Source of the DNA: Polyangiaceae bacterium
Lineage (GTDB): Bacteria > Myxococcota_A > Polyangia > Polyangiales > Polyangiaceae
Direction of reading: 5' to 3'
DNA length: 64,000 bases
Assembly (NCBI GenBank): GCA_050287085.1
Contig: JBNKBE010000012.1
Coordinates: 1-64,000, forward strand
The notes beneath the pieces were generated by a model. That model ran no database searches. It was not told the origin of the DNA and saw nothing but the letters and a program-made list of their open reading frames with translations. Made by a program: the position numbers and the translations under genes. Positions 22,171-32,625 of this stretch are shown in pieces (position 1 is the stretch's first letter; the number at the start of each line of letters is the position of its first letter).

Positions 22171-22800
22171 ATGCCCCGTCTTCTCCTCACCGGCTTTGAC
22201 CCATTCGGCGGGTGTGTCGTCAACTCGTCGTGGCAACTCGCGGCGCAGGTGAAGCTTGACGGTGACCGAGTCACGACAGCACTGCTGCCGACGTCGTTTG
22301 CAAGAGCACGCAGCGCACTGATCACCTTGCTTGCCGAGCAGCACCCGACCGTCGTTCTACACCTCGGACTGGCCGCCGCACGACAGCGCCTGACATTTGA
22401 GCTGATGGCACGAAATCGGGACCATAGCGCGGCGCGCGACAACGACGGCGAGCTTCGACAACACCAGCCCATCCTCTCCTCGGCGCCCGATGCGTACCGC
22501 AACACGTTGCCGCTGGAGATGATGCAACAACTCAGTGAAGAACGCGGGGAACCCCTCGACACCTCGGACGACGCTGGCGGGTTCGTCTGCAATCACGTGT
22601 TCTTCCACAGCGCCCACTGGTGCGCGTTGCGCTCGCTCCCCCCCTCCATATGCCCCGAATCTAAGCCCCATCCGGACTCCCAGCTGCGCTCATCGCCGCG
22701 CTGCGGCTTCGTGCACGTACCAGCGCTTGCGACGGACTCTGAGCGTATGACAAGGGTCGCCGGGATCGTATCGGCGTGGTGCGACGCGCTCTCGCGCTAG
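22171..22800 (+). CDS. pcp: Pyroglutamyl-peptidase I
   Basis: LLTGFDPFGG, catalytic Glu (TFE), DAGGFVCN (Cys), GFVHVP (His). Confidence 0.9.
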   Translation: MPRLLLTGFDPFGGCVVNSSWQLAAQVKLDGDRVTTALLPTSFARARSALITLLAEQHPTVVLHLGLAAARQRLTFELMARNRDHSAARDNDGELRQHQPILSSAPDAYRNTLPLEMMQQLSEERGEPLDTSDDAGGFVCNHVFFHSAHWCALRSLPPSICPESKPHPDSQLRSSPRCGFVHVPALATDSERMTRVAGIVSAWCDALSR

Positions 22801-23925
22801 CTAGGCCCACACCGCGCCGGGCCAATCGACACCGTGACCTAGATCAATCGCTGCAACCGATAGGGCCGACCCGTCGCGCGTCATACCTCCGCTAAACGGG
22901 CAGTCGCGGATGAACAACGGCGTATCCAGGTCCACGAACTCAACACCGCCAAGCCCTGCCGCGAGGCATGCCGACGTCGTCATCGCCAGGGTCGACTCGA
23001 CCATTCCCCCTACCATCAGTCCCAGCCCTTCGCGACGAGCGAGCGCTGCGATTTCCAGCACGCCAACAACGCCCGACTTCATGAGCTTCAAGTTCACCAC
23101 ATGAGGCGCGCCCAGCTCGCGCGCTGCGCGCTCCGCGTCCGCCGGGGTGACCACGCTCTCATCCAACGCGACACGACAACGTTCAGCCACTGCACGCAGC
23201 CCCCGCCAGTCGTCTTTGGCCACCGGTTGCTCGAAGAGCGCTACACTTATTCGCTCGCCCTCGAGCGCCTTCAGCAGGCGCAAGGCCTCCGCCCCGGATA
23301 GGCCAGCATTGGCGTCGAGCAAGAGCTCCGCATCTGGCGCTCCCGCCTTGACCGCACACAAACGCTCAAAATCCCCCGGCAAACCGACTTTGAGCTTCAA
23401 TTGTGAGAAGCCAAGCTTGCGCCAGCGAGCGGCGGCTTCCTGCGCCTGCGCTGGAGTCGTTATCGGGATGGTGACATCCGAGGACAGGCGTCCGCTGCCT
23501 TGCCCACCGAAAAAGCGATACAAGCTCTGACCTCGGCTGCGCGCCAGGCCGTCGCAGATCGCCATTTCGACGGCGCACCGCGCCGCCGGGCTTACGTCGC
23601 TGACGGCCCTCAAAGAGCTCGCCCAAGCGCCGAGGGTGCGTGGCCCCGAAGACAGCAGGTTGAGCGCAAGTCCGAGCGCCCGCAGCGTCCCCGCGATGGT
23701 ATCGCCGTTGTAGGCCGGCAGCGGCGCTGCCTCCCCGAGACCCCATGTGCCGTCCGCCAGTTGGACCCGCACCACCACGATCGGAGCTGCGTCGTGGCTG
23801 CCCCCCGCAATGCCGAAAGGCTCCGTCAGCTCGAGCGGGAGCGTCTGATACTGAAACCTGCGAACCTCCACGACCGCGTCACGAACGGTCGCGAAACTCT
23901 GCTCAGCCGCGTCGGTGGCGTTCAA
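22801..23925 (-). CDS. Dipeptide epimerase (L-Ala-D/L-Glu epimerase, enolase superfamily)
   Basis: GLGEAAP, KLKVG, LDAN, FEQP, DES, NLKLMKSG, DLD. Confidence 0.88.
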   Translation of the reverse strand: MNATDAAEQSFATVRDAVVEVRRFQYQTLPLELTEPFGIAGGSHDAAPIVVVRVQLADGTWGLGEAAPLPAYNGDTIAGTLRALGLALNLLSSGPRTLGAWASSLRAVSDVSPAARCAVEMAICDGLARSRGQSLYRFFGGQGSGRLSSDVTIPITTPAQAQEAAARWRKLGFSQLKLKVGLPGDFERLCAVKAGAPDAELLLDANAGLSGAEALRLLKALEGERISVALFEQPVAKDDWRGLRAVAERCRVALDESVVTPADAERAARELGAPHVVNLKLMKSGVVGVLEIAALARREGLGLMVGGMVESTLAMTTSACLAAGLGGVEFVDLDTPLFIRDCPFSGGMTRDGSALSVAAIDLGHGVDWPGAVWA

Positions 23926-24038: not shown

Positions 24039-24554
24039 TCAGTGGCTGGCGTTGTAGGCGGCAATGACCTTGTCGGTCAGGTCCAAATCACTTCTGACGT
24101 AGGGCACGGCCTGCTTGTCGACCACCAAAGCAAAGCCCTCTTTGGTGGCGATGCTCTTCACGGTGCCCAAAGCCTTTTGCAGTATCGGCTGCATCAGCTC
24201 GTTCTGCTTCTGCTGCAATTCCTGATTGTACTGCATGAAGCGCTGCTGGACGCCCATAGCTTCCTGCTGCCACTTCTCGACGCGCGCGGCGAGCGCTTGT
24301 TGGCTCAATACGCTGCGCTGCTTGTCGATCTGCTCTCGCTCTTTCTGCATTTCGTTCTGCTTGGCGTCGAGTTCCTTCTGACGCTTGTCAAAGAGCTGCT
24401 TCAAGGTGGCCTGCATCTGAACGCCGTCCTGGCTTTCCATGACGGCACGCTGCGTATCGACGACAGCCACCTTCATCTGCGCCTGCAACAACGTGGGGAC
24501 GGCGCTGAGACAGAGCGTGGCGAGAGCGACGCGTGCGAACTTGTGATTAAGCAT
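24039..24554 (-). CDS. skp: OmpH/Skp periplasmic chaperone
   Basis: Signal peptide, KVAVVD, long Q/K/E coiled coil, DLTDKVI; start re-set to MLNHKF. Confidence 0.88.
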   Translation of the reverse strand: MLNHKFARVALATLCLSAVPTLLQAQMKVAVVDTQRAVMESQDGVQMQATLKQLFDKRQKELDAKQNEMQKEREQIDKQRSVLSQQALAARVEKWQQEAMGVQQRFMQYNQELQQKQNELMQPILQKALGTVKSIATKEGFALVVDKQAVPYVRSDLDLTDKVIAAYNASH

Positions 24555-24902
24555 AGCAATGGTGGTAGTGGTGGTCGAAGCCAGGGTCAAGCCGCGGCAG
24601 CCCGGCCGACGCACTGTTGCGACCAACCCGCAGGGATTACAAGTCACAAAAAGGTCCAATCACGACCCTAACGACACACCTGGACGCACGGTCGAATGCT
24701 CCTCAGCGGATGTTTCGGTGTGAGGTGCAGCGGCCCGAACTCAGGCTACAATCCCTTCCGACACACACAACTTTGTCGAAAGTTGGCCGTATGCGCCGCC
24801 AAGTGCTGGAATATTGAGCAAAGCTTGCAACACTGCATTCCCCATCAGTCAGACGGTGCGCAAAGGGTCGCATCGAGCGCGTGCCCATTGGGTACCCGCT
24901 AC

Positions 24903-24985
24903 CCCTCAACCCGCGCTGCCCTCAACCCGCGCTGCCCTGCGCCACAACCGCGCGGCGTCTCAACCGCCCTGCGCCTCAACCCGCT
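24903..24985. repeat. Tandem 16-bp repeat (CCCTCAACCCGCGCTG x2) plus degenerate copies upstream of romR
   Basis: Two exact copies at 24903-24934, then partial CTCAACC copies. Confidence 0.7.
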
Positions 24986-25021
24986 CCGTAGCACCAGCGA
25001 ACACTCCCGGGAGGCTCGATC

Positions 25022-25957
25022 TTGACCACGCTCCTAGCCGTTGACGACAGCAGCACCATGCGCAAGGTGCTCGAAATTACCTTCGCAAGCGAACCCTACG
25101 AAACGGTGCTGGCAACATCTGCTGACGACGCCCTATCAAAACTGGGCCAGCAGCACGTCGAAGTAGCCTTGATCGACATCACGCTCGGCGCCGAAGACGG
25201 CTACCAGCTGTGCCAGAAGGTCAAGGCTGAGTTCCCGAGAACACGCGTTGTCCTGCTCTCGAGCAAGCAGCAGGGTTATGACGCCACGCGCGGCGGAGAA
25301 GTGGGGGCGGACGACCACATCGACAAGCCCTTCGAAACACAAGCTCTGCTGGACAAGGTGGCGGCCGTGCTCGAAGCACCGGCGCTCGAGGTGCCAGTAC
25401 CGGAAGCTCCGGTGCCCGCGCCGCAGCGCGTCCCCGAGCCCGCCATGACGGCGCCCGCTCCAGCTCCGATCTCTTCTCACAAGCCCTGGGCTCCCGCTTC
25501 GAACCCCATTCCGAGCCTCAATCTCGCGCCTCGCCCCGCAGCCGCGGCAGAGCCCGCGAGTGCGCCTGGCTACAGCGCCGCTGGATACGGCGCTGCCGGA
25601 CACGGCGCTGCCGGACACAGCTCCCCCGCCTACGACGCTCCCGCGCAGAGCGCCCCAGAGCCTGTCGCCGCGCCAGCCGCGATTTCGATCCCCAGCAGGC
25701 CACAACCCAACGCAGCCAGTGGGCATCATCACCCGCAGACGAAACCCGCCCCCTCTGCGCTTGCTTCGTCGCCGGCTGTCCTCCCAACCCTCGGCGGTCT
25801 AGAAACGCGACTCGAGGCGCTTGGCCTGGGCAAGACTCAAATCGAAGGTGTCCTGGCCTTGTCCAAGGAGATCGTCGAACAGGCGGTTTGGGAGGTAGTC
25901 CCGACCTTGGCGGAAACGTTGATCAAAGAAGAGATCGCGCGACTGACGAAAGCCTGA
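25022..25957 (+). CDS. romR: RomR polarity response regulator
   Basis: N-terminal receiver, Pro-rich linker and conserved C-terminus EIVEQAVWEVVPTLAETLIKEEIARL. Confidence 0.85.
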   Translation: MTTLLAVDDSSTMRKVLEITFASEPYETVLATSADDALSKLGQQHVEVALIDITLGAEDGYQLCQKVKAEFPRTRVVLLSSKQQGYDATRGGEVGADDHIDKPFETQALLDKVAAVLEAPALEVPVPEAPVPAPQRVPEPAMTAPAPAPISSHKPWAPASNPIPSLNLAPRPAAAAEPASAPGYSAAGYGAAGHGAAGHSSPAYDAPAQSAPEPVAAPAAISIPSRPQPNAASGHHHPQTKPAPSALASSPAVLPTLGGLETRLEALGLGKTQIEGVLALSKEIVEQAVWEVVPTLAETLIKEEIARLTKA

Positions 25958-27585
25958 GCCTGGGCCCTCCCCGCACCCCCGAGTTCATCGCGTGGCTCGG
26001 CTCCACACCAGCGCCTGAGCTGCTGCGTTGCGCCGCCTCTTTCGGAGCCCCGCAGCGATTCGGGGCCTTCTGGCTGTGGAGCCACACTGCGAACGCTGAG
26101 CGCTTTGGGGTATCGAAGTGTGCCACCGGCCAAGACGAGCCCACGACCGTCCAGCTAACTAGCCGCGGGGGCATCTTTGACCGCGCCGTAGGCGGCGGCG
26201 CGCCCGTCCACTACGCCGAGGTACCCAGTGGAGTGTTGGTCGCCTCCACGTTGTTGCCTTTCATCCAAGGTCTTGGGCTCGCTCAGGCCCATGAATTGGC
26301 GACGGCCTTCTGGTTCGGGGGCAGACCCACGTTCCCCCAGGGTCAGACGCCCCTGGCGGGCGTCAAGTCGCTGCCGCCGGGCACCATCCTTCACGTCACA
26401 AGCGAGCGAAAGCTGTGGGTCGAGGCTTCCTTCCATCCGCCCGCTCAGTCCCGACGGCCCCCTCGCCGAGAGCTCTTCCTGGAGCATGCCGCAGCCCTGC
26501 GCGAAGAGCTGAGTGGTGTCATCGCCCGCGAATGCCCGCGCGACGAGACCCTCGTCTTCTACTCCGGAGGGGTGGACTCAGGCCTGCTTGCGGCGCTGGC
26601 AGCAGCCCAAGGCAAGCGCTTGCAAGCGCTCAGCGTTGTGCCCTCGGGCTACGCGGCGGATGCACCCTGGGAACGGGCGCTGGTCGAACGCCCCTTGTTG
26701 ACGCGTTCTTTCCGGGCCCACTCGGTGCTCGAGCTGGATCAAAGGCGCTGGATAGACGCCCTTCAGCAGGCACCTGCGGCCCCATTTCCCATCGTTTATC
26801 ACCCCTCATTGCTCTTGCTCCAGACGTCCCCGAGACACCCGCTCAACACGGTGTTGCGAGGCGAGTTCGCGGACGAGGCCTTCGGGTCCAGGCTGCGAGT
26901 CGGCGATTGGCTGGACGCCCATTCCGTGCTGCAGATACTGAGCACCACCCCAGACCGCTGGCCCCTTGGGTGGCGCACCCCGCTGAGCAAGCTCAAGCGT
27001 CAATGGCTGGCGCGCCGCAGCGCTGAAGCGAGCCCAATGCAAACGCTCCCCCGCTGCTTTCGCGGCGATCTTCGCGATGAATACGCCGCCTGGCGCCGCG
27101 CTCTAGGAGGCGCCCGCAGGGCGCTGGGCCTGCTCGATCTGCGGGATGGCATTCTCACTGAGGCGTGGGAATCCGCGGGACAAAAGGGGTATCATAGCGT
27201 CTTTCCCTTCATGCACCGGCGGGTCTTGGAACTCGCCTACTCGCTGCACCCGGCGGAATTGCTCGGCTCGGGCACCAAACGAGTGCTGCGCGTTGCGGGC
27301 CGAGGAGTGTCGCTAGAGGCACACCGCTTGCGGGCCGACAAGGGCGTGCTGCGGGCGGCATCCCCGCATCGTACCTTCCCGCTGCCGCGCTTATCTGCGG
27401 AAAGCGAGGCCTTGTTGTGCCCACGCTGGCTCGACGACGCCAGCGCGAACGGGGTCGGACCCGCCGACGCGTTGCGACTCAGCGGAATCGAGCATATGAT
27501 GAAAAGCTATCGCAGCCTGAGGGAGCAATACGAAGATGACGTCGACGCCGGTGCAGCAGGAAAAACTCGAGAGCCAAAGCGCTAG
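25888..27585 (+). CDS. Asparagine synthetase-like protein, probable lasso peptide cyclase (C protein)
   Basis: GVKSLPPG, PP-loop YSGGVDS, GEFADEAF, FPFMHRRVLELAYSL, KRVLR, RADKG; no N-terminal glutaminase Cys; a lasso-type precursor follows. Start uncertain (TTG 25888 or CTG 25954). Confidence 0.75.
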   Translation: MGGSPDLGGNVDQRRDRATDESLSLGPPRTPEFIAWLGSTPAPELLRCAASFGAPQRFGAFWLWSHTANAERFGVSKCATGQDEPTTVQLTSRGGIFDRAVGGGAPVHYAEVPSGVLVASTLLPFIQGLGLAQAHELATAFWFGGRPTFPQGQTPLAGVKSLPPGTILHVTSERKLWVEASFHPPAQSRRPPRRELFLEHAAALREELSGVIARECPRDETLVFYSGGVDSGLLAALAAAQGKRLQALSVVPSGYAADAPWERALVERPLLTRSFRAHSVLELDQRRWIDALQQAPAAPFPIVYHPSLLLLQTSPRHPLNTVLRGEFADEAFGSRLRVGDWLDAHSVLQILSTTPDRWPLGWRTPLSKLKRQWLARRSAEASPMQTLPRCFRGDLRDEYAAWRRALGGARRALGLLDLRDGILTEAWESAGQKGYHSVFPFMHRRVLELAYSLHPAELLGSGTKRVLRVAGRGVSLEAHRLRADKGVLRAASPHRTFPLPRLSAESEALLCPRWLDDASANGVGPADALRLSGIEHMMKSYRSLREQYEDDVDAGAAGKTREPKR

Positions 27586-27754
27586 CGGCAACGCCGAATC
27601 GGTCAGCGATCCTGCCGTGACGATCGGAACGGACGCCGGCAAGCTGCCCTACAGCAAGCCCACCGTCAGCCGCTTGGGAACTGTGCAGGAGCTGACCCAG
27701 TTCACCAAACAGGGACCCGAAAACGAGTTCCCCCAGGGCGGCAGCGGCGGGTAG
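27536..27754 (+). CDS. Lasso RiPP precursor peptide
   Basis: Leader YSKPTVSRLGTVQELTQ matches YxxPxL/VxxxGxxxxxT with Thr at -2; predicted core FTKQGPENEFPQGGSGG has Glu at 7 and 9; GAGGGAG RBS 10 nt before ATG. Confidence 0.8.
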   Translation: MTSTPVQQEKLESQSASGNAESVSDPAVTIGTDAGKLPYSKPTVSRLGTVQELTQFTKQGPENEFPQGGSGG

Positions 27755-27787
27755 GGCGAGCGTCGTACGAGTTTCCCGTCGCCACCT

Positions 27788-28129
27788 TCACCGAGCCAGC
27801 AGCGAAAAGCGCGCCGGCGTAATGCGCTCGGACTTGCATCGGGGACATCGGCTCGGACGACTGAAGCGCGTTCGCTCTTGGAATTCGAAACCGCAGCCGA
27901 GACAGCAAGCAGGCACGGTGGCGAGTTGCTCCCCCCGCTGCAAAGAGCGCTCCAGGGAAGACAAGAGCTCCGGAAGTTCCTTCTCTGAACGCCTCAAGGC
28001 GCGCGATAGGTCCTTGAGGGTGTACGTATTGTTTGCCGGCGCGCCGCTGGCCGGAACGCCGCTAGCCGGAACATCGCTGGCCGGCGTACTGTTAAGCAGC
28101 ACCTTGCGCAGCTGCTGAAGCACCGTCAT
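27788..28129 (-). CDS. Small HTH + Zn-ribbon protein (COG3357-like putative regulator)
   Basis: HTH TLKDLSRALRRSEKE followed by CLGCGFEF...RPSRCPRCKSERI; start re-set to MTVLQQL. Confidence 0.75.
   Translation of the reverse strand: MTVLQQLRKVLLNSTPASDVPASGVPASGAPANNTYTLKDLSRALRRSEKELPELLSSLERSLQRGEQLATVPACCLGCGFEFQERTRFSRPSRCPRCKSERITPARFSLLAR
28035..28085. repeat. In-frame 15-bp tandem repeat (PASxx x3)
   Basis: GCCGGCGCGCCGCTG / GCCGGAACGCCGCTA / GCCGGAACATCGCTG. Confidence 0.75.
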
Positions 28130-28313
28130 CTCGCACACGGTCTTAGGGTAGTCCCCCAAGCGAGCTCGAGCCAAGCACTTTCGCCGGCGAACCCGACCCT
28201 GAGCAACGCATATCGTGCGCGCAGCGTCAATGCATCCGGTCACGATCTCGTGCGGCAGGAAACACGCGTCGCGCTTGCAGCGAGGGGCGCGAACACGCGA
28301 TAACCCGAGCGCG

Positions 28314-29024
28314 ATGAGTGTCGAAGCTGTGCTGCGAGCCGAGCAAGTCACCAAAGTCTACCAGATGGGTGATGTTCGAGTGGACGCTCTTCGTGGCGTA
28401 GACTTTCAGCTATACCGGGGTGAACTCTTGGTTCTACTGGGCGCGTCTGGAAGTGGCAAGTCCACGCTCCTAAACATCGTAGGCGGACTCGACACTCCCA
28501 GTTCAGGTCACGTCTTCTACGAGCAAGCGGACTTGAGCGGTGCTGAAGATGCCGTCTTGACGCGCTATCGGCGTGAACACGTTGGATTCGTTTTCCAGTT
28601 CTACAACCTTATCCCCAGTCTGACGGCTATGGAGAACGTAGCACTGGTTACCGACATCGCCGCCAATCCGCTTTCGCCGCGCGAGGCACTTGCGCTGGTG
28701 GGCTTGGAAGCGCGAGCGCACCACTTTCCGGCCCAGCTATCTGGTGGGGAACAGCAGCGCGTTGCCATCGCGCGCGCCATCGCAAAGCGTCCCGATATCC
28801 TGTTATGCGACGAACCAACAGGTGCGCTGGACTACCGTACCGGAGTGCAGGTGCTGTCGGTATTGGAGCGAGTGAACAAGGAACTGGGCGCCTCCACCGC
28901 CGTGATCACCCACAACGCGCCGGTAGCCGAAATGGCCGATCGCGTGGTCTCACTATCAGATGGACTGATCGTCAGCGATGAATCAAACCCGAATCGCAAG
29001 AGACCCGAGGAGTTGAGTTGGTAG
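28314..29024 (+). CDS. ABC transporter ATP-binding protein (LolD/MacB type)
   Basis: [37 protein letters not shown]. Confidence 0.93.
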
Positions 29025-31390
29025 GCGCGTTGCAGAAAAAGCTGCTGCGCGAGCTGCTGCGCTTGCGTGGGCAGGTGGTCACCATTTCGCTCGTGGTGGC
29101 CTGTGGGATTAGCAGCTATCTTGCGATGCAGTCCGCATACGACTCGCTCGTACACTCTCGTGACGCCTACTACGAGCAATACCGCTTTGCCGATGTCTTT
29201 GCGACCTTGCACCGCGCTCCCAGAGCCGTAGCGGCGCATATTGAAGCGCTAGCGGGCGTTGCCCGCGTCGACACGCGCGTGGTGGAGAAGGTGTTGGTGC
29301 CCATGCCGGACTCGCCGCGGCCTGCGAGCGGCACGCTCATCGGACTGGCGCCCGACGCCGCTGGCGGTCGCTTGAACGACGTTCACATCAAGGTGGGTCG
29401 CGCGCTGGATCCGGCGCGCGCGGACGAGGTCCTGGTACTGGCGGCCTTTGCCGAAGCGCACGGCCTGCAACCGGGTGACTCTTTGGACGCGGTGCTCAAC
29501 GGAACGCTGCGCACCCTGCGCATCGCGGGCCTGGCTCTCAGTCCCGAGTTCGTGATGGCCATCTCACCAGGCTCGCTCAGCTATGACCCCGCTTTGGTCC
29601 CTGTGTTGTGGATGAATGGGGACGCGGTGGAGGCTGCATTTGGCATGGCAGGAGGCTTCAACGACGTAGCCCTCCAGCTGGATCAGTCAGCCAACGTGAC
29701 CGGAGTGCTGGCCGACGTGGATCGTCTGATCGCGCCCTACGGCGGAATTGCCGCGGTATCCCGCGACAAGCAGATCTCAAACTACATGCTCCAGGGCGAA
29801 CTCACGCAATTGGCCAGTATGGCCAACTTCGTCCCTTTCTTGTTCCTGTTTGTGGCGGCATTGCTCGTCAATGTGGTGCTTTCCCGACTCGTCCAATTGC
29901 AGCGTATACAAATCGCGACCCTGAAGGCGATTGGCTACCGCGACTTTGCCATTGGTCTGCACTACCTGCTGCTCGTAAGCGTGGTCGTCTTGCTCGGGGC
30001 CGCACTCGGGGTGTTGCTCGGCGCCTACGCGGGCAAGGCCATGACCAACATGTATACGGGGCAATTCTTCCGCTTCCCGGAGCCACGCTACCGCCTGCAG
30101 TGGCAAGCCATCGCCTTTTCCGTGGGAATAAGCCTCGCATCGGCCGCAGTAGGGGCCCTCATCACCGTGCGGCAAGTAGTGGGCATGGCACCTGCCGATG
30201 CTATGCGCCCCCCGAGTCCGCCATCCTACAAGCGCTCGGTGCTGGAGACGGTTGGGTTGTGGCAGCTGCTAAGCCCCGCGACGCGCATGATTTGGCGCGA
30301 ACTATCGCGACGCCCTCTTCGCCTGGCCCTTTCAGCGCTGGGTATCGCTCTCGCAACAGGCCTCATGGTGCTAGCTCGTTCCATGTGGGACGCGATGGAC
30401 GACCTCGTCACAGTGCAATTCCATCGGGCCATGCGGGAGGATATCACCGTCACGTTTCAGCGGCCCGTTTCGCCCGAAGCAGTGGCCGAGCTCAATCACC
30501 TGCCGGGCGTCTTGCTCGCTGAAGGACTGCGTGCGGTACCAGCACGGGTTCAGGTGGGCCATCGCTTTCGCGACGTCATCGTCAATGGCTACCCCGAAGT
30601 GACGCGTCTACGGCGTGTGCTCGACACACGAGGCAAAGAGCACCCCATCCCCGATAGCGGTGTCATGATGACAGAAACCCTAGCCACCTTGCTCCACGTC
30701 GCCCCCGGCGAAAGAGTGCACCTCGCGCTTCGCGAAGGATCCTGGCCCGAGTACGACATCGTGGTGCGAGAACTCGTCAACGAGCCTTTTGGATTGCAGC
30801 TCCACCTTCCAATGGCCGAACTCAATAGGTGGCTCGGGGACCGAGGTGCGCTCACGTCGGCGCTGCTGCGCGTCGACATGAACGAGTTTTCCAATGTCGA
30901 GCAGAAGCTCAAGCAGTTGCCCTGGATTGCCAGCGTGAGCAGTCCGCACGACTTCCAACGACAGTTTGATGAACAGAGCGCCGCGATGATGAACTTCTTC
31001 ACGTTGATCATGACGCTATTTTCGGCGGTCATCGCGATCGGTGTAGTCTACAACAACGCCCGGGTAGCGCTATCTCAGCGCAGCAGGGACCTGGCCAGCT
31101 TGCGAGTGCTCGGTTTCACCCGCCGCGAGATCGCGAGCATCATCTTCGGCGAGCAGGCGGTGCAGGTAGTTCTTGCTCTGCCCATCGGACTCGTCATCGG
31201 CGAGTGGCTAAGCCAAGCCATGATGTCCAATGTCGATCCTGAGGCCTATCGCTTCTATGTGCGCATTTCGACGCAAACCTATCTATTCGCGATCGGGGTA
31301 ACGATCGCCTCCGCCGTGTTGAGCGCCTTCATTCTGCGGCGCAAGATCCACCGCCTCGATCTCATCGGGGTACTCAAGACCCGCGAGTAA
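29018..31390 (+). CDS. FtsX/MacB-like ABC permease (duplicated domains)
   Basis: Two MacB/FtsX repeats with IATLKAIGY and LASLRVLGF motifs; multiple TM helices. Confidence 0.9.
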
Positions 31391-31395
31391 CTGCC

Positions 31396-32625
31396 ATGAC
31401 AGACAAGAATACCTCCTCGCAAAAAACCGCTCGCAAGTGGAGCAAGCGGCTGGTTCTACTAGCGCTGGGACTGGCTGTTGTGGCCGCTATTGCCTTGGCG
31501 GCAGCTCCCAAGCCTGTAGCCGTCGAGATCGGCCGCGTCGAAGCCGGAACCCTCGTGGTCACCGTCAACGAGGACGGGCGCGCCCGGGTCAAGGATCGCT
31601 TCGTCATCTCCGCGCCCCTGTCCGGGAACCTGGCTCGCATCGAACTGCACCCGGGCGATCCGGTCAAACAGGGTGATGTCCTGGCGCGCCTCGTTCCGGT
31701 GCGAGCCCCACTGCTGGACGCGCGCAGCCGTTCAGAGGCTGAGGCAAGGGTCTCCGCCGCATACGCAGGCGTCCGGCAAGCCAAGGCACAGATCGCTCGC
31801 GCCGAAGCGGCGTCGACCTTCACCAGGACGGAAGTAGAGCGCGTTCAGGCATTGGTGAAGGGGCAGGTTATCGGGCGGGAGGAGTTGGATCGCGTTCTGT
31901 TCGACCAACGGACGCGCGACGCTGAACTGACCTCCGCTCAGTTCGGAGCCAAGGTGGCGGGACACCAACTCACGATGGCGCAGGCGGCGCTCGGTCACCT
32001 GGACGGCACGGAGCCTAGCAACGGTCCAACGCTCACCGTCACGAGTCCCATCAGCGGGCGGATTCTTCGGGTCATCCAGGAGAGCGAAGGAGTGGTCGCC
32101 GCCGGCACCCAGCTGGTGGAACTCGGCGACCCTAGGGCGCTTGAACTCGTCGTCGACGTACTCACCGGCGACGCCGTTTCCATTCACTCCGGCAGCGCAG
32201 TCACGGTGGACGGCTGGGGCGGAAAGCCATTGCCGGCGGTGGTACGGCTCGTAGAGCCGAGCGCCTTCACGCGCGTTTCGGCCCTGGGCATCGACGAGCA
32301 GCGCGTCAACGCCATCATCGATCTCACCGCTCCGTACGAGGATTGGCAGGCGCTCGGTGACGGCTACCGCGTGGAAGCAAGAATCGAAGTCTTTCGCGCG
32401 GACAACGCAGTGCTCGTTCCACAGAGTTCACTATTTAGGCTGCGTGATGCCTGGGCCCTCTACGAAGTCGTGGAGGGCCGGGCAGAGCGACGCATCGTCG
32501 AAATCGGTCGCCGCAACGACATCCACGCTCAGGTGCTGAAGGGCATTGCGCCCGGTGCCGAAGTCGTCATGCACCCAAGCGATAAGGTGACGGACCAGGT
32601 CGCGCTGGCGCGCCTCCAAGACTAG
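31396..32625 (+). CDS. HlyD-family periplasmic adaptor (membrane fusion protein)
   Basis: N-terminal TM, lipoyl halves ISAPLSG / VTSPISG, alpha-hairpin, VSALGIDEQRV. Confidence 0.9.
   Translation: MTDKNTSSQKTARKWSKRLVLLALGLAVVAAIALAAAPKPVAVEIGRVEAGTLVVTVNEDGRARVKDRFVISAPLSGNLARIELHPGDPVKQGDVLARLVPVRAPLLDARSRSEAEARVSAAYAGVRQAKAQIARAEAASTFTRTEVERVQALVKGQVIGREELDRVLFDQRTRDAELTSAQFGAKVAGHQLTMAQAALGHLDGTEPSNGPTLTVTSPISGRILRVIQESEGVVAAGTQLVELGDPRALELVVDVLTGDAVSIHSGSAVTVDGWGGKPLPAVVRLVEPSAFTRVSALGIDEQRVNAIIDLTAPYEDWQALGDGYRVEARIEVFRADNAVLVPQSSLFRLRDAWALYEVVEGRAERRIVEIGRRNDIHAQVLKGIAPGAEVVMHPSDKVTDQVALARLQD

Follow-up and report, generated by a model that had tools for sequence, protein, structure and literature searches.

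A short open reading frame directly downstream of an asparagine-synthetase-like gene encodes a predicted lasso peptide precursor in the 64,000-nucleotide stretch of DNA analysed here (the window; G000:C12:1-64000, G000 being the source genome). The features on which the argument rests are the following:

25954..27585, plus strand: lasso cyclase with an asparagine-synthetase fold; start uncertain (TTG 25888, CTG 25954 or GTG 26233)
27472..27500, plus strand: weak promoter-like site upstream of the precursor ATG, a consensus match only
27536..27754, plus strand: lasso precursor gene, 72 aa from ATG 27536; the alternative start GTG 27617 would give 45 aa
27650..27700, plus strand: conserved leader, Y(-17)-x-x-P(-14)-x-V(-12), G(-8), T(-2)
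27701..27754, plus strand: predicted core, translating as FTKQGPENEFPQGGSGG followed by the stop, with Phe1 at 27701-27703 and a leader register that is gap-free against 47 homologues
27719-27721 (Glu7) and 27725-27727 (Glu9), plus strand: candidate ring-closing residues, read from the sequence
27743..27745, plus strand: Ser15, the family-conserved serine and a predicted site of phosphorylation and locking

Precursor, core and cyclase

That the frame is a lasso precursor had been proposed in an earlier, sequence-only reading, and three lines of evidence bear this out. The leader scores 20.1 bits against the NCBIfam lasso leader model NF033521 (cut-off 19), an acidic residue falls at core position 7–9, and a profile of 47 homologous precursors, from which this sequence was left out, finds the frame as the sole precursor match in the genome (E = 1e-8, the next being 1.8, among 135,492 stop-to-stop segments). 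The family profile also matches the solved leader of TbiA (E = 3e-5). Third-position GC in the frame is coding-like (0.82–0.87), and the features of a class II lasso peptide are present: a YxxPx(L/V) leader, Thr(–2), Glu7 and Glu9, and no Cys. The leader P, G and T are invariant across 48 precursors, an invariance that is in part built into the search pattern. One promoter-like site was seen in 24500–28500, with 0.3 expected.

The Thr(–2) rule had been used to place Phe at position 1, and this placement held. The leader aligns without gaps to those of the 47 homologues, putting Phe in the usual Gly position, and the Phe1 start is the only Thr(–2) register that gives an acidic residue at core 7–9. 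Cleavage before Gly5, the alternative that the earlier reading had given as an example, leaves no Asp or Glu at 7–9, and neither does cleavage two residues after the core's own Thr2. Cleavage before Gln(–1) would give Glu8; it is unlikely because it requires Leu(–2) against the family's Thr register.

The remark that Phe1 is unusual was also correct: position 1 is Gly in 41 of the 48 distinct family cores, Ser in 3, Phe in 2, Val in 1 and Leu in 1. The second Phe1 core belongs to G029, and placing the two Phe1 cyclases in one clade is weakly rejected (p-AU 0.023, with a long-branch caveat), so Phe1 may have arisen twice. No Phe start occurs among the 47 solved structures of LassoPred Table S5, counted by eye. 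Trp1 and Tyr1 lassos are known (bioRxiv 2020.11.25.399105; this and the papers given by PMC number are cited from the available parts of their text), and there is one characterised precedent, palassoptide A1, a Phe1-Glu8 lasso that its authors called unprecedented in September 2026 (PMC13632552). Phe1 is thus rare, not new.

The cyclase matches PF00733 above the cut-off (E = 5e-13), keeps the SGGxDS, GxFAD, PF and R-DKG motifs (ATP-binding motifs), and yields a predicted model (pTM 0.82) that resembles beta-lactam synthetase and AsnB folds. It scores far under the NCBIfam lasso-cyclase cut-offs, as do its intact homologues. The protein-database call (P0001) starts at GTG 26233. The CTG candidate overlaps the TGA stop of the preceding response-regulator gene as CTGA (window 25888–25960), a possible translationally coupled non-standard start.

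Several other genes flank the pair. The response regulator (25022–25957), which we take to resemble myxobacterial RomR, has a Pro-rich linker and a C-terminal domain that is 65–74% conserved in five relatives, and the gene downstream of it differs between genomes. Directly after the precursor, on the minus strand, lies a PF0610-like Zn-ribbon ORF (27788–28354), which a search with this query did not find in five relatives. A MacAB-type exporter (28215–32625) was considered as part of the system and set aside, its only tie to other loci being a generic ABC ATPase group. Further upstream, a pyroglutamyl peptidase gene (PF01470) is convergent with an enolase-superfamily epimerase-like gene (22171–23925), with no link to the lasso genes.

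A divided pathway and its homologous family

The 64-kb window contains no peptidase and no RRE. An operon of RRE, B2 peptidase and HPr-like kinase lies instead on another contig of the same genome, adjoining tsf (G000:C4:230.5-232.2 kb), and holds the genome's sole lasso B2 peptidase, its best RRE and its sole strong family kinase. With profiles built without the G000 rows, the genome yielded a single precursor, and likewise a single B2, strong family kinase and family cyclase. The RRE scores above the PF05402 cut-off. The B2 peptidase falls just below its cut-offs (NF033537, 31.1 against 33) and retains Cys79 and His110, and the kinase retains His131, Lys152, Asp169 and Asp170, the His-Lys-Asp-Asp motif of lasso kinases (PMC9266682). 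In four relatives (G026, G010, G014 and G006) the FG-GAP protein gene, RRE, B2, kinase, cyclase, precursor and tsf are contiguous, and the C4 site has the identical gene order minus the cyclase and precursor. None of the five relatives checked has a cyclase within 1.5 kb after the response-regulator gene. We found no cyclase remnant at C4, no DNA longer than 12 bases shared by the two sites and no informative repeats at the window site.

The split is known from this single organism, but an assembly error is an unlikely cause: at each site one contig runs across without joints (depth 15.8 and 13). The run that provided this check is the genome's probable source, which makes it a second assembly and not independent biology. 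Taken jointly, a real precursor, a Phe1 start and a split pathway are very probable, and we infer that the C4 RRE, B2 peptidase and kinase work in trans on the window's precursor.

About 6 kb upstream of the RRE, at C4:223.5–224.6 kb, lies a PF14907 (NTP_transf_5) gene, a putative PsmN-like nucleotidyltransferase; the genes around it are presumably of polysaccharide type. The C4 operon abuts a gene for a 1351-aa FG-GAP protein and this polysaccharide-type locus (L015:1-8400, G000:C4:210-230 kb), and the FG-GAP gene adjoins the lasso operon in six relatives too. A second NTP_transf_5 gene lies on C41 (L016:3200-11100), beside a second PqqD, an HprK-like kinase, two glycosyltransferase-like genes and an STT3/AglB-like oligosaccharyltransferase, and this is possibly a locus for peptide or protein phospho-glycosylation. 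Its PqqD and kinase were rejected as partners of the precursor: the locus has no B2, cyclase or precursor match, and no row of the tree is more distant than its kinase.

Homologues of the cyclase occur in 16 of 383 genomes of the source's family, in none of 210 sampled genomes from the order's other families (E 1e-60), and further in 33 GTDB loci and at least 20 metagenome loci. They extend over Polyangiaceae, Actinomycetota, Gemmatimonadota, Chloroflexota, Acidobacteriota, Verrucomicrobiota, Planctomycetota and WOR-3. A pattern based on the leader only found a precursor in 50 of 69 loci scanned (some being the same contig fetched twice), giving 48 distinct cores including this one; many of the 19 precursor-less loci end at contig ends, and in G289 the precursor lies 5 kb off. 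Asp or Glu stands at core 7–9 in all 48 cores, a feature absent from the search pattern. Per locus, a kinase homologue was counted in 44 of 69, B2 in 30, RRE in 30 and the NTP_transf_5 group in 26, with five members of the last confirmed by Pfam. The kinase is visible in 32 of the 50 precursor loci, most of the others being cut upstream. Three loci without a kinase within 4 kb carry one elsewhere: two have it 6–8 kb off and one has it on another contig, with an internal stop. No kinase was found in G156 (84% complete), and a single-protein scan of genome contigs gave no match.

At least one family member, the L075 core, is already listed in the LassoPred supplement as a predicted lasso peptide, so the family has been mined, yet is unstudied in the literature searched. 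That search, with most subscription papers and bioRxiv supplements outside its scope, returned no paper on the family or on an internal phosphoserine plug. Some loci carry variations of their own: a PRMT-fold methyltransferase stands beside 4 of the 69 (L084:7537-8883, L068, L053 and L107), and in L082:1964-2638 one cyclase is followed by three tandem precursor genes, all ending in Ser-Ala-Tyr. A Leu1 core in which Thr replaces the conserved Ser, with the kinase still adjoining (L102, L104 and L115), offers a natural test for Thr phosphorylation.

The tail serine and the ring

The tail of the core had been described as plug-poor, and comparison of the 48 homologous cores both confirms this and makes it a family trait. 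GGSGG is the richest in Gly among the last five residues of these cores. No medium or large residue stands at acceptor+4 or later in 11 of the 42 cores whose ring is unambiguous, and no Phe, Tyr, Trp or Arg in 31 of 42. In the present core the bulky residues at these positions are none with a Glu9 ring and only Gln12 with a Glu7 ring; the earlier statement that an unmodified Glu9 ring has no obvious lower plug is therefore upheld.

What the tails do share is a serine. Ser occupies core position 13–16 in 44 of 48 cores and position 14 in 28, numbers never reached in 20,000 within-core shuffles (means 15.1 and 5.0, maxima 30 and 16), a test that ignores kinship among the cores. By eye, Ser lies at 13–16 in 4 of 47 solved lassos. 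The four family exceptions are one core with Thr and three same-genus cores with long tails, in which Ser is the last or next-to-last residue, and a 49th core found later (G289) has Glu9 and Ser14. In 42 of 48 cores the serine is one of the final three residues, and in nine it is the last; 1–6 varied residues follow it in 38, and five cores hold it at 14–15 with 3–6 residues behind. The residues past Ser vary freely, and the ending Ser-Gly-Gly occurs in two of the 48.

Where this serine would lie relative to the ring can be gauged from solved lassos. Among the 19 solved 9-rings, residue 13 serves as upper plug in 1 structure, 14 in 6, 15 in 7, 16 in 3 and a later residue in 2, and lassos have a minimum loop of 3 and a minimum tail of 2 (PMC12214591). 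From these plugs and minima, the family's 9-rings of 15 residues must have Ser14 below the ring, and Ser15 of this 17-residue core falls at the crossing.

We favour Glu9 over Glu7 as the ring-closing residue, by a modest preference. Among the 42 unambiguous family rings 22 are 9-rings and 4 are 7-rings; all four 7-rings use Asp, and the eight Glu acceptors are all at 8 or 9. Cores of 17 residues have 8- or 9-rings in six of six cases, and the G151 core, which shares the Ser-Gly-Gly end, has Glu9 as its single acceptor. In quick and FastTree trees the cyclase clusters with same-genus cyclases (E9, E9 and E8; support 85–94), and a placement beside the Asp7 clade is weakly rejected (p-AU 0.034). 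A local profile centred on the acceptor does not separate Glu7 from Glu9 (0.40 against 0.04).

The leading alternative, and a close one, is a Phe1-Glu7 ring of xanthomonin geometry seated between Phe10 and Pro11, with Gln12 as the lock and Ser15 phosphorylated further down for another purpose, a reading that we consider rather doubtful. It draws support from the two solved 7-rings (2MFV and 4NAG), both of which use Glu7 though Glu8 follows and have the upper plug at 10 and a large residue at 12. A ring seated as these are, between residues 10 and 11, would have Phe10 above it and leave Pro11 or Gln12 as the only possible locks; the sequence-only reading had listed Phe10, Pro11 and Gln12 as possible holds of a tight Phe1-Glu7 ring, and that ring stays a live alternative with the last two residues as candidates but without Phe10. 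Within the family, Pro stands directly before the acceptor in 15 of 42 cores, against 2 with Asn. The most similar core (G014) gives six identities at a +1 shift that maps Glu7 onto its acceptor Glu8 (p = 0.013, uncorrected for 47 comparisons). Three of the five other unambiguous Ser15 cores are 7-rings, all three from one genus, and an extra acidic residue stands two after the acceptor in three cores and two before it in one. Against these points stand the scarcity of family 7-rings and the lack of any Glu among their acceptors, the position of the cyclase outside the Asp7 clade, and the want of a precedent in the literature searched for a 7-ring with a bulky Phe start, palassoptide A1 having an 8-ring.

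A proposed phosphoserine lock and its rivals

Lasso knots are known to be held by bulky side chains or by disulfides. In 2019 a post-translational group was put forward as a third means, for pseudomycoidin (PMC6993621), and the literature searched yielded no demonstration of such a lock. Our tentative proposal, held at well below even confidence, is that the core forms a Phe1-Glu9 ring locked by a phosphorylated, possibly glycosylated, Ser15. By analogy with PadeK, BsfK and PsmK/PsmN for the order of steps, the C4 RRE would bind the leader, and the kinase would first phosphorylate Ser15 on the linear precursor, as PadeK does. B2 would then cut after Thr(–2)-Gln(–1) and free Phe1, and the cyclase would adenylate Glu9 and close the ring around Gly13/Gly14, leaving Ser15 below it. 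The phosphate, perhaps extended with a hexose through the nucleotidyltransferase, would hold the Gly-rich tail in place. The calculated monoisotopic mass of the cyclised core is 1717.77, rising to 1797.74 with phosphate and to 1959.79 with phosphate and hexose; loss of Gly-Gly from the cyclised core would give 1603.73.

In favour of this lock are the complementary halves on C12 and C4, the occurrence of the same genes as one operon in relatives, the intact catalytic residues, the conserved Ser, and an upper plug at residue 14 or 15 in 13 of the 19 solved 9-rings. Other observations tell against it. Residue 15 is above the ring in 7 of those 19, and the three closest same-genus cores have Ser at 21–24, tracking the C-terminus and not the ring; the kinase may therefore measure from the C-terminal end. 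At acceptor+4 or later, 31 of the 42 unambiguous cores carry some medium or large residue and may have no need of a phosphate lock. Characterised lasso kinases target a C-terminal Ser (PMC9266682) or, at the other characterised site, Ser3 (PMC10368454); a sub-terminal internal Ser was not found as a lasso-kinase site in the available text of the literature searched. The reduced state of the cyclase, described next, also weighs against the lock.

It is conceivable, though unlikely, that the locus is a decaying relic, in which cyclase and precursor moved behind the response-regulator gene, no product is made, and Phe1 and the Gly tail are drift. The N-terminal domain of the cyclase is about 50 aa shorter than that of its homologues, the family's RYW motif is lost, and no ATG or GTG stands at the homologous start position. 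The cyclase branch is the longest in the ingroup (2.05–2.35), a long branch (1.72) leads to the C4 kinase as well, and the cyclase family is patchy, as its 16 occurrences in 383 genomes attest. However, none of the five frames is interrupted, and the catalytic residues are preserved on both contigs; the leader motif, acceptor window and Ser are all retained; the cyclase model has the full catalytic domain; same-genus cyclases from intact clusters are likewise long-branched (1.3–1.8); and Phe1 is found in G029 too.

The sequence-only reading had also suggested that a Phe1-Glu9 ring may form and the tail slip out, giving a branched-cyclic product, here a (phospho)peptide. We regard this outcome as quite improbable. 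It would fit the lack of bulk at 13–17, which 11 of 42 family cores share at acceptor+4 or later, and the branched-cyclic state of purified unmodified pseudomycoidin. It leaves unexplained a Ser at the ring crossing in the five cores in which 3–6 residues follow, and the available text describes the pseudomycoidin topology tests for material from kinase-less gene sets (PMC6993621). The weakest alternative, that trimming of the terminal Gly-Gly exposes Ser15 as the C-terminal residue for phosphorylation in the manner of paeninodin, is very improbable: it draws on the serine's place within the last three residues of most cores, the preference of known kinases for a C-terminal Ser (PMC9266682) and the shortening of lasso tails by host carboxypeptidases (PMC13352647), and has against it the varied residues after Ser in 38 of 48 cores with no common cleavage motif, the rarity of the Ser-Gly-Gly end, the conservation of Ser15 rather than of Gly-Gly, and no recurring trimming peptidase recognised among neighbour groups (some of the top 30 groups identified).

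The phosphoserine lock has its closest counterpart in the psm system of Bacillus pseudomycoides, which likewise combines a cyclase, split B1/B2, an HPr-like kinase and a nucleotidyltransferase with a plug-poor tail. There, the unmodified peptide purifies as a branched-cyclic form that one bulky substitution converts to a threaded one, and the authors speculate that phospho-glycosyl modification is a 'third strategy' of locking (PMC6993621). The pseudomycoidin Ser is the last residue of a long tail, whereas ours is internal, residue 15 of 17, and at the crossing; the Phe start and the placement of the genes on two contigs also set this system apart. Judged from its genes, the system is predicted to work like pseudomycoidin's, yet Ser15 is followed by Gly-Gly and so falls outside the C-terminal-Ser type of paeninodin and pseudomycoidin. 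Paeninodin, ThcoA/ThcoK and SyanA/SyanK share the His-Lys-Asp-Asp kinase acting on a linear precursor and the canonical leader, and differ in a strictly C-terminal Ser substrate (PMC9266682), an ending found in only the nine family cores noted above.

Other known systems resemble this one in single features. Palassoptide A1, from an oral Actinomyces, is a natural Phe1 lasso, and differs in its Glu8 ring, its Tyr17 lock and its phylum, with no kinase described in the available text (PMC13632552). Xanthomonins I and II (4NAG and 2MFV; LassoPred Table S5) prefer Glu7 over a following Glu and have a lock candidate at 12, and differ in a Gly1 start and a large hydrophobic residue at 12 where this core has Gln. 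The Bsf cluster of Bradymonas and the LPP peptides have an RRE-aided HPr-like kinase acting on a non-terminal Ser; their target is Ser3, Bsf has Ile(–2) and LPP lacks a cyclase (PMC10368454, PMC13381572). The present core has Lys3 and Thr(–2) and its system a cyclase, and Ser3 occurs in 1 of 48 family cores.

To mining based on gene clusters, this site would appear as a half without a peptidase and C4 as a half without a precursor. Were the ring closed at Glu7, or the pathway decayed, the locus would belong to a known kind, as an ordinary or a dead example of it. The association with genes for surface polysaccharides suggests that the product may be a phospho-glycopeptide rather than a plain antibiotic. 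More broadly, a widespread, multi-phylum lasso family may lock its knot by a phosphoserine, or phospho-glycosyl serine, at the ring crossing and not at the tail end, a generalisation that we offer as doubtful. An almost invariant Ser at the crossing, with nothing else there in this member under Glu9, allows a clean yes/no test of such a lock. If it is true, no natural member would test it more cleanly than this Phe1, Gly-tailed one, itself then a rotaxane that a phosphatase could switch; engineering would also gain a lasso kinase acting on an internal Ser and a second natural lineage of cyclases that accept Phe1.
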